Notes: generated by a model not told the origin, from the sequence alone. A stretch of 39,383 bases of DNA from an uncultured Bacilli bacterium (GCA_944372275.1 CALVYO010000001.1:1-39383); one strand, 5' to 3'. Numbered from the stretch's first letter, positions 30,846 through 33,938 are shown. Translations and numbers: made by a program.

Positions 30846-30920
30846 ATGATCCCTCCTTCCACATAACTACTTGAAATTATATCACTTTTTTCTTTTATTT
30901 ACAATAGATTTTTAATAAAA

Positions 30921-30950
30921 ATAAAGAAAAAGAATGATTTTCACCATTCT
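30921..30950 (-). terminator. intrinsic terminator closing the bacteriocin operon
   Basis: Minus strand reads AGAATG-8 nt-CATTCT followed by TTTTCTTTATTTTT. Confidence 0.6.
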
Positions 30951-31106
30951 TTATACAGGACAAGAAGTTAAGCATCTAATAGAAGAACCTACTAAATTGC
31001 CAAATTTAAAGATTATTTCCACACAAATAGGAAACAAAGGTAATAAACAAAGTACTATAACTGCTAATATAATTTGTTTATAATGATTTTTTATTATACT
31101 GGACAC
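30951..31106 (-). CDS. candidate bacteriocin immunity protein (about 51 aa, start uncertain)
   Basis: Open frame reads (GTG)SSIIKNHYKQIILAVIVLCLLPLFPICVEIIFKFGNLVGSSIRCLTSCPV. Hydrophobic core. No ATG and only a weak RBS. Overlaps the 3' end of the preceding peptide gene. Confidence 0.3.
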   Translation of the reverse strand: MSSIIKNHYKQIILAVIVLCLLPLFPICVEIIFKFGNLVGSSIRCLTSCPV

Positions 31107-31255
31107 ATCGAACCTGATATTGCTCTTCTAATCGCACTACCTAAACTTCTTCCGACATCCATTATAGCATTAATACCTTTATAGATTGAAGTTAACAAAC
31201 TACCAGTAATATTAATACCACCTACTACTTGTAATAATTCTTCTTTTTCTAACAT
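31094..31255 (-). CDS. double-glycine-leader bacteriocin prepeptide (53 aa; not in the ORF track)
   Basis: AGGAGG, 6 nt, ATG. Reads MLEKEELLQVVGG / INITGSLLTSIYKGINAIMDVGRSLGSAIRRAISGSMCPV. The leader has E(-8), L(-7), V(-4) and GG(-2,-1). Confidence 0.8.
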   Translation of the reverse strand: MLEKEELLQVVGGINITGSLLTSIYKGINAIMDVGRSLGSAIRRAISGSMCPV

Positions 31256-31265
31256 ATTTCACCTC

Positions 31266-31400
31266 CTAATTACATTTAAGTGGTCTTATATAACCATCGA
31301 TAACACCGATTAAAAATATAATTCCTGCTCCTATTAATAAACCGGTACCTAAACCACCACCAGATATTTTTTGTAATTCATTTTTTTCTAACCTTGCCAT
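31266..31400 (-). CDS. double-glycine-leader bacteriocin prepeptide (44 aa; not in the ORF track)
   Basis: Reads MARLEKNELQKISGG / GLGTGLLIGAGIIFLIGVIDGYIRPLKCN. The leader has L(-12), E(-8), L(-7), I(-4) and GG. The mature part has tandem GxxxG motifs. The ATG overlaps the 3' end of the accessory gene, and the stop overlaps the RBS of the next peptide. Confidence 0.75.
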   Translation of the reverse strand: MARLEKNELQKISGGGLGTGLLIGAGIIFLIGVIDGYIRPLKCN

Positions 31401-31843
31401 TTTTTCAATCCTTTCTTTAATTCTTGATAAATTGTCGTTTTGTTATTTTTTAATACTAAATTAATAATATTATTTTCTATCAAATATTTTTCTTTTAAAT
31501 TAAAATTTAATATTACTTCATAACATAACTCATCATTATTAACAAAATATTCATCACTTATTGAAACAATTTCAAAATCATACTCTAAATCATCAACTAA
31601 CAAAATACTTGTAGATAATTCATTTACTTTATCATTAGGTACATAAATAATCGTATAAAATGAATTATCAATTTTTTTAATGTAGCCAAAATATGAATTA
31701 TAAATATTATACTCATACTTTAACGCTATAATTAAGAATAAGATAAAACTAATACTTAGAAATATGAGCCAAATAATTATTATTTTAGAGGTCTTTTTAT
31801 TTAATATATATGAATGGTTATTATGTATTTTTTGATAAATCAT
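31388..31843 (-). CDS. single-TM accessory protein of the bacteriocin exporter (151 aa)
   Basis: N-terminal TM (IIIIWLIFLSISFILFLIIAL) followed by a beta-rich ectodomain. Overlaps the ABC gene by 23 nt. The role is assigned by position only. Confidence 0.5.
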   Translation of the reverse strand: MIYQKIHNNHSYILNKKTSKIIIIWLIFLSISFILFLIIALKYEYNIYNSYFGYIKKIDNSFYTIIYVPNDKVNELSTSILLVDDLEYDFEIVSISDEYFVNNDELCYEVILNFNLKEKYLIENNIINLVLKNNKTTIYQELKKGLKKWQG

Positions 31844-33854
31844 CGATTATTTTTCCTTTCTCTATTTTTATTACTTTATCAAATAAATCCATATTATCTA
31901 AACGATGGGATATGAAAATTATCGTTTTATCTTGATATTCTTTTAAAATATTTTTCATAATTATGCGTTCCATATTTGTATCAACTTGACTCAATCCTTC
32001 ATCGATTATTAAAATATCAAAAGGATTAGAAATAGCGCGACTTAATATTATTCGTTGTTTCTCACCACCTGATAAATTAAAGCCGTTTTCTTCAATTAAA
32101 GTTTTATACCCTAATTGATTTTTTTTAACTATTTCATCGACTAAACATATTTTAGCTACTCTATAAATATCGTTACCTATATTGTTTTCAATAGTATCAG
32201 AAAATAATATTTCATTTTGTGATACATAAACAATATTATTTAATTTGTAGTCGTTAATATCAATATCACCAATATATACTTTATCTCTTTCAATTTCATA
32301 ATGTTGCTTTAAAATTTTAAATAAAGTACTTTTCCCACTACCACTACTACCTAATACCATAACCTTACTTTTTTGTTTTATCGTTAGATTAATATTTGAT
32401 AAAACATTAGTAACATCATCAAAACTATAACTTAGATTATTAAATACAATATCGCCAATAATAGGTTTAACTTGAACATCGTTTCTCTTATAATATAAAT
32501 ACAATATTTTTTTTATCGATATTTTTGCTTGTTTTAAATTGTTATCTAAATCAATGATATTTCTAATTGGACTTAAAAAGTAGATAAGTAAAGAATTGAA
32601 GGACAATAATGTACCAATCGTTATTTTGTTATCCATTACTAAAATAATTCCTACTAATATAATGACTAAAAAGCCAAGATTATTTATTAATTCTTTTAGT
32701 AAATATTGATAATTATAACATTCATCTAAGTCTTTAATTTTATTAGAATAAGTAGCATATTTATCTTCAAAATTATTAATAATTTTATTTTCTATATTAC
32801 ATCCTTTTAATGTTTCATAACCATTAATCGCTTCAACCATATAAGAAGTTACTAATGATTTATTCAAGATAGTTTCATCGATTGATTCATTAAATTTATT
32901 TCTAAATATAACTATTATTAATAAATAAAATAACATAATAACTAAACTTATAAAAAATAAAGTAGAATTTAAAATATACATAATTATTAAAGATAAAATA
33001 GTGAGCGGTAGATCGATAAATAAACTTAAAGCCACTTTGGCAATCACTTGTCTTACAGCTTCTAAATCATTTATCTTTGATATTATTTCACCAGTTGTAT
33101 TATTTTTATAATAACGATATGGGAGGTTTATTATTTGTTTAAAGGAATTGAAAGTAAGATTGAAATCTATTTTTTGATTAATTAAAATTAATATTTTGTT
33201 TCTTAAAAAATCGGATATTATTTTTAATAAATAAACAAGTAAAAATAACATAAATATTAAGATGATTTTCTGTTTAGAAAAAATATTATCTACCATATAT
33301 TGCATATAAAACGATGTGATAATAGAAAATATTGTAATAAAAATAGATATAATAACAACTTGAACCAATTGATTAGTTGAGGTATGAGTTATTTCTTTTA
33401 TAAATTTTATACACGAGTTATTGGGGGTATTTAGTATTTTTTTAATAGGATATAATATTATTAATACATTATTAAATATATTATCAAATTCTTTATACGA
33501 GCTATATTTACGTTTTCCAATCGGATCATTAATCAATAATCTTTTCTTTTTAAAATCTATTTTTTCAATTACAACATAATGTTTGTAGGAGTTATTTATA
33601 ATTACATGGGCAATACATGGAAGTATTACATTTTCTTTTTTTAAATCATTTAATTTACATTTAATTCCATAACTTTCAAAACCTAATTTTTTACTTGCTT
33701 CGATTAAGTGATACGCAGTCGTTCCTGATTTATCAGTTTTACACATTTCTTTTAAATCATTGATATCAACATTACCTTTATAATATCTAATTATATTAAG
33801 TAAACAACTTGGACCACAATCTTTTAAACCTTCTTGCTTAATTCTTTTAAACAT
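31821..33854 (-). CDS. bacteriocin-processing ABC exporter with N-terminal C39 peptidase domain
   Basis: C39 Cys box QEGLKDCGPSCLLNII. Six-TM domain. Walker A GSSGSGKST, signature LSGGEKQR, Walker B ILIIDE. Confidence 0.9.
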   Translation of the reverse strand: MFKRIKQEGLKDCGPSCLLNIIRYYKGNVDINDLKEMCKTDKSGTTAYHLIEASKKLGFESYGIKCKLNDLKKENVILPCIAHVIINNSYKHYVVIEKIDFKKKRLLINDPIGKRKYSSYKEFDNIFNNVLIILYPIKKILNTPNNSCIKFIKEITHTSTNQLVQVVIISIFITIFSIITSFYMQYMVDNIFSKQKIILIFMLFLLVYLLKIISDFLRNKILILINQKIDFNLTFNSFKQIINLPYRYYKNNTTGEIISKINDLEAVRQVIAKVALSLFIDLPLTILSLIIMYILNSTLFFISLVIMLFYLLIIVIFRNKFNESIDETILNKSLVTSYMVEAINGYETLKGCNIENKIINNFEDKYATYSNKIKDLDECYNYQYLLKELINNLGFLVIILVGIILVMDNKITIGTLLSFNSLLIYFLSPIRNIIDLDNNLKQAKISIKKILYLYYKRNDVQVKPIIGDIVFNNLSYSFDDVTNVLSNINLTIKQKSKVMVLGSSGSGKSTLFKILKQHYEIERDKVYIGDIDINDYKLNNIVYVSQNEILFSDTIENNIGNDIYRVAKICLVDEIVKKNQLGYKTLIEENGFNLSGGEKQRIILSRAISNPFDILIIDEGLSQVDTNMERIIMKNILKEYQDKTIIFISHRLDNMDLFDKVIKIEKGKIIDDLSKNT

Positions 33855-33910
33855 TTTTTACCTCCCTACTAGTTATATTAGCCAAAAGTATAGCGAATTC
33901 CTGCAAGAAT

Positions 33911-33938
33911 TAAAAAAAAATTGCATTTTTTTGCAATT
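33911..33938 (-). terminator. intrinsic terminator of yebC
   Basis: Minus strand reads AATTGCA-loop-TGCAATT followed by T8. Confidence 0.6.

Follow-up and report, generated by a model that had tools for sequence, protein, structure and literature searches.

A double-glycine two-peptide operon inherited across an order of small-genome gut Bacilli, and its possible role as a class IIb-type bacteriocin system

Bacteriocins are generally regarded as accessory traits with a fast turnover, and the loci of two-peptide (class IIb) bacteriocins carry an accessory protein of the HlyD type of ~450 amino acids (aa). The gallocin locus is variable and regulated by quorum sensing. In gallocin A, encoded by gllA1-gllA2-gip of Streptococcus gallolyticus, the cysteines matter for activity, and GIP has been modeled as toxin-like, which would confer immunity by competition (PMC10100652). 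The cibABC genes of Streptococcus pneumoniae encode a two-peptide bacteriocin of competence-induced fratricide together with a small immunity protein; they belong to the core genome and are under an alternative sigma factor that also drives DNA uptake (PMC5295010). Here, we describe a locus that resembles these systems in a 39,383-nucleotide (nt) stretch of DNA from an uncultured Bacilli bacterium (GCA_944372275.1, CALVYO010000001.1:1-39383; the window below always means this whole stretch). The locus consists of five closely spaced minus-strand genes that encode a C39-peptidase ATP-binding cassette (ABC) exporter, a 151-aa accessory protein, two peptide precursors with double-glycine (GG) leaders, termed pep1 and pep2, and a small membrane protein encoded by a further open reading frame (ORF), termed ORF3. 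We give about an even chance to the view that pep1 and pep2 form an unmodified class IIb-type membrane toxin that is switched on with competence or in stationary phase. A limited literature search (RF39 bacteriocins, reduced genomes) turned up no published description of the operon.

Coordinates are positions in the window, and the genome to which the window belongs, G000, is a 1.23-Mb metagenome-assembled genome (MAG) of 24.7% GC content and 73% completeness. The stop of the exporter gene (31821-33854, 677 aa, identified as an ORF with Pfam matches) is overlapped by 23 nt by the accessory gene (31388-31843, 151 aa, identified as an ORF and from a structural model), which in turn overlaps the start of the gene for the 44-aa pep1 precursor (31266-31400) by 13 nt. 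The 53-aa pep2 precursor (31094-31255) has GGAGGTG as its ribosome-binding site (RBS), and the GTG start of the 51-aa ORF3 (30951-31106) lies within the last codons of pep2, giving a 13-nt overlap with the end of that gene. All three small genes were defined as ORFs with orthologs. Folding places an intrinsic terminator (30914-30952, minus strand) at the ORF3 stop codon, with a 10-bp stem, a GAAA loop, and a U-rich tail; the computed hairpin (30929-30952, then a U-tract; −9.2 kcal/mol, z = −2.2) is consistent with the terminator that an initial annotation of this DNA had put at 30921-30950. That annotation had also described the peptide genes, which are present where it placed them and whose translations agree with ours letter for letter, and it had correctly set the locus between rpsU and yebC; its statement that no kinase or regulator adjoins the operon holds for the ORFs listed for the window. 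Both leaders are of the double-glycine type, as it had proposed, positions −4, −7, and −12 being hydrophobic and position −8 a Glu. It had further made conservation of the small ORFs a check on their reality: homologs are kept in relatives, and the median pairwise ratios of nonsynonymous to synonymous substitution rates (dN/dS) within the genus are 0.23 for pep1, 0.26 for pep2, and 0.38 for ORF3, which confirms all three as genuine genes under purifying selection.

The exporter matches the Pfam domains Peptidase_C39 (1.8e-30), ABC_membrane (2.6e-33), and ABC_tran (4.8e-22), and its motifs are intact (DCGP, HYVVI, and DP, Walker A GSSGSGKST, and the signature LSGGEKQR). Its alignment with the NCBIfam family of peptide cleavage/export ABC transporters, TIGR01193, is full-length (residues 11-674) and scores 405.7 bits, below the cut-off of 523.85; the domain architecture and catalytic motifs are canonical despite this score. 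G000 encodes a single C39 domain, that of the operon's exporter, and in its 1.23 Mb pep1 and pep2 are the only convincing GG-leader ORFs, so the exporter appears dedicated to these two peptides. Across relatives we obtained 176 loci; of the 158 with sufficient sequence for this count, 157 have the exporter gene upstream and in the same orientation. The accessory protein has no match in Pfam or NCBIfam. Its AlphaFold2 (AF2) model (predicted local distance difference test score, pLDDT, 85.4; predicted template modeling score, pTM, 0.64) shows a transmembrane (TM) helix at residues 18 to 42, a β-barrel, and a C-terminal helix, with no lipoyl or α-hairpin domain of the HlyD/membrane-fusion-protein type as in LcnD or ComB. 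The top Foldseek matches in the PDB are the β-barrel domains of MacA, MexA, BesA, EmrA, CusB, and pneumococcal Spr0693, all of them weak (E 0.03-0.3 over ~82 columns), and we tentatively regard the protein as a minimal membrane-fusion-protein-like adaptor. In 102 of 157 loci, an ORF of at least 90 aa separates the ABC gene from pep1, and the homologs retrieved carry neither a source name nor a Pfam domain.

The pep1 precursor comprises the leader MARLEKNELQKISGG and the mature peptide GLGTGLLIGAGIIFLIGVIDGYIRPLKCN of 29 aa (average mass 2957.6 Da), which is hydrophobic (grand average of hydropathy, GRAVY, 1.22) and contains the tandem GxxxG motifs claimed for it initially (G1-x3-G5-x3-G9 and G17-x3-G21). 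Orthologs share a GxxxG-rich TM segment followed by IGVIDG(Y/F)xRPLKC(N/R). Of 21 pep1 orthologs, 20 match the NCBIfam family TIGR03949 (class IIb, lactobin A/cerein 7B) at E ≤ 0.1, the best at 4.2e-8, and the pep1 family as a whole straddles the TIGR03949 cut-off. The NCBIfam scan of the window's peptides also gave a match to the leader domain TIGR01847 (E 0.019).

In pep2, the leader MLEKEELLQVVGG precedes a mature peptide of 40 aa, INITG...SMCPV (average mass 4136.9 Da), that is amphipathic and cationic, as first described, with a net charge of about +3 and a hydrophobic moment of 0.5 to 0.7 (maximum 0.71). Orthologs conserve the GG, the stretch (I/L)xI(S/T)G(S/T)L, a near-invariant GRSLG(S/T)AIRR (GRSLGSAIRR in the window), and a cysteine (Cys) near the C-terminus; the GxxxG motif G35-x3-G39 is invariant. 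The AF2 model (pLDDT 74) has a leader helix, a single long helix spanning residues 15 to 47, and a free tail bearing the Cys. Searching 1.84 billion proteins with a pep2 profile returned 483 clusters at 50% identity, the best 150 of which are mostly 50 to 57 aa long; the homologs retrieved come without a source name or Pfam domain, and for annotation purposes pep2 defines an unnamed family of this size. Two pep2-like stretches within one protein, or additional pep2-like genes, occur in some relatives, as in three ~100-aa proteins of the representative library (P0095, P0139, and P0221) and in three genomes with two to three pep2-profile matches (G068, G083, and G089); these may be tandem duplications, fusions, or miscalled ORFs.

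Each mature peptide, pep1 as well as pep2, has exactly one conserved C-terminal Cys in 175 of the 176 loci. In the one exceptional lineage, the residue is gone from both peptides together, a single event. This pattern hints at a pep1-pep2 disulfide through the single cysteines and proves nothing; a heterodimer of this kind would have a mass of 7092.4 Da.

The N-terminus of ORF3 is rich in Lys; the protein has a single TM helix, and its C-terminal segment reads G-x3-G-(S/T)-x-I-R. The initial annotation had remarked that its C-terminus echoes that of pep2, and this echo reflects true homology: in a profile-profile alignment with hhalign, residues 24 to 53 of pep2 align with residues 25 to 51 of ORF3 (probability 90%, E 1.6e-6), and in genome searches of relatives the pep2 profile matches ORF3 genes and the ORF3 profile matches pep2 genes. 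From the alignment and the mutual matches, we conclude that ORF3 is a paralog of pep2's C-terminal half that lacks a leader and is anchored in the membrane. It may serve in immunity or as a decoy, and its resemblance to pep2 is consistent with immunity by competition of the kind proposed for gallocin GIP. Defined as a small TM ORF with GxxxG[ST] that starts 4 to 26 nt before the end of pep2, ORF3 is present in 88 of 174 loci, and no ORF3-like frame lies within 3.4 kb of the remainder; several of these other loci have a terminator directly after pep2. By genus, it occurs throughout in 34, is entirely missing from 44, and is mixed in 4. Because half of the genera lack it, ORF3 is not an indispensable immunity gene and is therefore not required for producer survival generally. 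As ORF3 is found in about half and the accessory gene in about two thirds of the loci, the conserved core consists of the exporter, pep1, and pep2, and the window's genus has the full five-gene version. Two further ideas about ORF3 were examined and set aside. Capture of pep1 by ORF3 through a disulfide is weakened by the finding that only 59 of 87 ORF3 copies have a C-terminal Cys, and the presence of ORF3 does not track that of the lactococcin G receptor UppP/BacA, since BacA was found in five of five genomes with ORF3 and in five of five without.

In the window's genus, pep1, pep2, and ORF3 are present in 27 of 29 genomes, and they recur in other genera, with gene order and overlaps unchanged. 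Throughout the genus, the five genes keep a syntenic arrangement, with rpsU on one side and yebC or rnc on the other, the synteny of the operon extends across the family, and rpsU lies downstream of the operon in 109 of 166 loci. Across the order, pep2 was detected in 192 of 200 high-quality genomes (97 of 98 genera) and a C39 domain in 193 of the 200; six genomes lack both. A 400-genome sample of the class gave pep2 in all 51 genomes of the window's family and in one other small-genome family, and in its 28 remaining families a single pep2 match, confined to the leader. The description of the locus as an island does not survive these counts, and composition (22% GC in the operon, 26% in the window) together with synteny led us to reject a foreign origin. 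Median identity to the window across the order is 50% for pep1, 45% for pep2, 37% for the ABC protein, and 62% for rpsU.

Upstream of the exporter gene, reading the minus strand reveals a hairpin (ATTGCA-N7-TGCAAT) with a T-run at 33911-33938, which is predicted to end yebC transcription and to insulate the operon, followed by a putative promoter, GCAGGAATT-N12-GGCTAAT, with its −35 box at 33896-33904 and its −10 box, 12 nt further on, at 33877-33883; the RBS of the ABC gene, GGGAGG, is at 33861-33866. The sigma-H consensus has RNAGGAWWW at −35 and RNNGAAT at −10, 11 to 12 nt apart. GCAGGAATT fits this −35 consensus fully, and GGCTAAT, 12 nt away, departs from the −10 consensus by a single G-to-T change. 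The experimentally defined sigma-H promoter of Listeria comEA has AAAGGAATT at −35 and GGCGAAT at −10 with an 11-nt spacer (PMC4754846); the window's −35 box matches the former, and its −10 box is one base from the latter. Distant families have an ABC promoter with the canonical GAAT, for example AGAGGAATT-N12-AGGAATAAA in G042. Conservation was counted in a position-anchored manner because the exact pattern of the genus gave few or no sites in other species, the motif diverging; 88 loci of the order have the AGG box between −50 and −46 relative to the start codon of the ABC gene, and an A stands at +23 from AGGA in 76% of loci across the order.

The same type of promoter, GCAGGATTT-N12-GTCGTAT, precedes comEA-comEC in G000, where ComEA has SLBB and HHH_3 domains. 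A sister species (G013) has the same set of genes with this promoter, comEA-comEC included, and a diverged matching variant stands before comEA in three of the four readable distant genomes (G031, G036, and G042), the fourth (G033) being ambiguous and a fifth (G037) being left out of this count. The SigH ortholog of G000 (200 aa; contig C19, 14375-14956, locus L067) directly follows mrnC (mini-RNase III)-rlmB, as in Bacillus subtilis; its full-length alignment with TIGR02859 scores 100.7 bits, short of the cut-off of 294.8, and the Sigma70 r2 and r4_2 domains are both present. SigH-like factors drive competence genes in Staphylococcus aureus and Lactobacillus sakei (PMC3486894, PMC3364868). 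We infer that the operon promoter is sigma-H-dependent, and a sigma-H-type promoter, which the initial annotation had overlooked, appears to replace the missing quorum-sensing pair. DprA was not found in G000, a 73%-complete MAG. The idea that the whole competence machinery shares this promoter was dropped, as the gene for a PilB-like ATPase differs; the sharing applies to comEA-comEC only.

The promoter is part of a module of ~100 nt with at least 17 copies in the 1.2-Mb G000. It is made up of a hairpin terminator, a T-run, (G/A)(C/A)AGGAWWT, a spacer of N12-13, G(G/T)C(T/G)(A/T)AT-ATAAC, and TA(G/A)TAGGAGGTGA; a similar hairpin and T-run stand ahead of most copies in G000. The window's copy is at 33861-33938, and the others are on contigs C3, C20, C24, C29, C46, C84, C96, C102, C108, C117, C121, and C128. 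Besides many PDDEXK_2 (Rpn-like) paralogs, the module precedes a 67-aa ORF with a recG-like helicase gene behind it, a 537-aa secreted protein encoded directly upstream of spoIIAA, sigF, and spoVA (like recG, named from a reading of the sequence), and a 249-aa protein upstream of a spoVS-like gene. Together, these genes resemble a small regulon of the sigma-H type in which a nuclease-like gene family predominates. Several other features were noticed. On C24, sporulation-like ORFs (spoIIAA-like, sigF-like, and SpoVAC/SpoVAD/SpoVAE-like) lie ~1.7 to 4.5 kb past the module, and C46 of this ~1.2-Mb genome carries the SpoVS-like gene; both were read from translations. C3 has, past the duplicated Rpn-like genes and 1.9 kb downstream of a module copy, a gene for a 237-aa membrane protein with an EELMFRG motif, which we take by eye to resemble an Abi/CPBP intramembrane protease. 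The Abi/CPBP family includes immunity proteins of class II bacteriocins. The frame of the ABC gene begins with ATT or ATA at a proper distance from the strong RBS in 14 of 149 loci (L035, L093, L095, L097, L109, and L129 among them), and such starts recur in several Rpn-like paralogs on C84, C102, and C121 (GGAGGTGATTTAAATAAAGAAG...), which suggests that ATA and ATT start codons are frequent in the clade.

We propose the following mechanism. The sigma-H-type promoter would start transcription of the operon, as it would for comEA-comEC and a few other genes, and because the promoter is common with comEA-comEC the peptides would be produced as cells pass into stationary phase or competence. Both would be synthesized with their GG leaders, and the dedicated C39-peptidase ABC transporter would cleave after the GG and export them, aided in the window's genus by the 151-aa membrane-fusion-like adaptor. 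Outside the cell, the hydrophobic, GxxxG-rich pep1 would pair with the long amphipathic, cationic helix of pep2 in the target membrane and permeabilize it. Where present, ORF3, translationally coupled to pep2, could vie with pep2 for pep1 or a receptor and in this way shield the producer. The peptides may thus be a built-in tool that lyses neighbors and releases their DNA and nutrients, in parallel with pneumococcal CibAB-CibC; we consider this link of fratricide or predation to DNA uptake about half as likely as the toxin reading as such.

The assignment to class IIb made in the initial annotation is borne out in part. The layout speaks for it (two peptides with GG leaders and GxxxG motifs, encoded together with a dedicated C39-ABC exporter and a small membrane ORF), as do the matches of pep1 orthologs to TIGR03949. 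A number of observations weigh against the mechanism as proposed. With TIGR03949, the pep1 of the window reaches 18.1 bits (E 0.0017), short of the 21.5-bit cut-off, and pep2 has no match beyond the leader among curated families; searches of PDB sequences with the pep1 and pep2 profiles returned chance-level matches only, of which the pep2 result counts here. Bacteriocin loci usually vary from strain to strain, and it is unusual for them to be inherited vertically across a whole order while the mature peptides are kept under purifying selection; here, the mature peptides are also more conserved than their exporter. ORF3 is missing from 86 of the 174 loci, with both peptides intact there, and its gains and losses amount to at least 19 changes on the ABC tree; as ORF3 is lost while the peptides are kept, immunity must lie elsewhere or the peptides must be harmless to the producer. 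On the side of regulation, the −10 boxes of the genus have T or A where sigma-H promoters have G or A (GGCTAAT, GTCGTAT), and the PilB-like ATPase gene has a sigma-A-type promoter instead. Finally, ComEC is kept in three of five genomes without C39 and pep2, with none seen in the other two, a count of joint losses that is uninformative because these genomes are 91 to 95% complete.

Order-wide inheritance, purifying selection, peptides conserved beyond their exporter, and the half of the lineages without an immunity candidate leave room for a role directed at the producer itself. The pair might then bring about programmed self-lysis or membrane remodeling within a sigma-H developmental program (DNA release, lysis of the mother cell or siblings, or envelope signaling), with ORF3 as a lineage-specific modulator and the class IIb appearance as a trace of ancestry. 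The promoter that is common to the operon, comEA-comEC, and the gene directly upstream of the spoIIAA-sigF-spoVA genes would suit such a program. However, a housekeeping use of GG-leader two-peptide systems is without known precedent, the pep1 profile falls in a bacteriocin family, and the mimicry of pep2 by ORF3, where ORF3 is present, suits a logic of toxin and immunity. Nor does the scarcity of immunity candidates decide the matter, since immunity would be equally superfluous if the toxin acted on other taxa by way of a receptor absent from the producer. On balance, we think a producer-directed role possible though unlikely.

The ComC/ComAB machinery likewise consists of GG leaders and a C39-ABC exporter, and pep1, pep2, or both could be ComC/BlpC-like pheromones, processed by a ComAB-like transporter and feeding back on competence or sigma-H. 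One pep1 ortholog has a weak ComC match and another a weak BlpC match, and the operon seems to be co-regulated with DNA-uptake genes. However, it is the leader that gives rise to the ComC and BlpC matches, both mature peptides are long, and pep1, TM-like at its GRAVY of 1.22, would make a poor diffusible signal. Pheromones normally diverge into pherotypes, whereas GRSLGSAIRR and IGVIDGYxRPLKC are near-invariant across genera, and the operon's neighborhood has no histidine kinase or response regulator. With peptides this membrane-like and invariant, and with no receptor nearby, a pheromone role is very improbable. A narrower alternative concerns ORF3, which could be a third, leaderless component inserted by Sec/YidC, serving as an assembly partner or surface anchor of pep1 or as a retention factor or chaperone in export, and not in immunity. 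Half of the genera do without ORF3, which shares the G-x3-G-[ST]-x-I-R core with pep2 and tends to co-occur with the accessory gene (both in 64 loci, neither in 42, ORF3 alone in 13, and the accessory gene alone in 38; raw counts that ignore kinship). Yet a small single-TM protein coupled to the last structural gene sits in the usual position of class II immunity, and gallocin GIP offers a precedent for a toxin-like immunity peptide. We judge a third-component role for ORF3 quite improbable.

New here are the lineage-variable ORF3 and accessory genes, the membrane-fusion-protein-like character of the accessory protein, and the near-invariant single Cys of both peptides. Whatever its function, the locus is a class IIb-like system whose distribution equals that of housekeeping genes within an order of abundant uncultured gut bacteria with ~1-Mb genomes, and it appears to be wired to a sigma-H regulon that holds DNA-uptake genes. 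Should the class IIb-type toxin reading be right, killing would be tied to the acquisition of DNA and nutrients in organisms that depend on their neighbors, by a conserved peptide pair with the predicted masses of 2957.6 and 4136.9 Da; if it is wrong, GG-leader peptide export has a new cellular use. The boldest version makes the exporter and peptides a lineage-defining, vertically inherited weapon of an entire order of metabolically dependent, tiny-genome gut Bacilli, which under the sigma-H-type switch that also controls the DNA-uptake channel would lyse neighbors and import their DNA and nutrients, with a Cys-linked pep1-pep2 heterodimer and a membrane-anchored pep2 decoy, ORF3, as a sub-claim. 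We regard this as rather unlikely; if true, a bacteriocin would have become an obligate part of a lifestyle and not an accessory competitive trait.

How the locus compares with described systems depends on which of its features is considered. In its promoter, it comes close to the sigma-H-dependent competence promoters of Listeria, Staphylococcus, and L. sakei (PMC4754846, PMC3486894, PMC3364868). The window's genus departs from known sigma-H promoters in replacing the G or the first A of GAAT, which gives TAAT or GTAT, whereas distant families keep GAAT; and the regulon here would take in an exporter and peptide operon, which has not been reported from those species. With gallocin A, it has in common a two-peptide architecture in gut Bacilli and a third product, ORF3, that resembles one of the peptides, here at the level of sequence. 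Gallocin forms hairpins with intramolecular disulfides between the two Cys of each peptide, whereas pep1 and pep2 have one Cys each, so a hairpin of that type does not apply, and pep2 is predicted to be a single helix from residue 15 to 47.

The operon shares more with class IIb operons such as those of lactococcin G and of the lactobin A/cerein 7B group (TIGR03949): two adjacent GG-leader genes (both kept in 176 loci), GxxxG in both peptides, a C39-ABC exporter dedicated to the locus and accompanied by an accessory gene, a short ORF for a membrane protein behind the structural genes, a lack of enzymes for modification, and pep1 orthologs that match TIGR03949. It differs in that pep2 matches no known family, the accessory protein has 151 aa, a single conserved Cys lies near the C-terminus of each mature peptide (175 of 176 loci), the locus belongs to the core genome and is passed on vertically within the order instead of varying between strains, and a sigma-H-type promoter seems to take the place of three-component quorum sensing. 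The closest functional analog is probably cibABC, which likewise combines two peptides and a small putative immunity protein, lies in the core genome, and has a promoter type in common with DNA-uptake genes, here comEA-comEC. The two differ in that the cib operon has, to our knowledge, no exporter of its own, whereas the operon described here opens with the gene for a dedicated exporter, and in the sigma factor, which is ComX in the pneumococcus and would be the SigH ortholog in these gut Bacilli.

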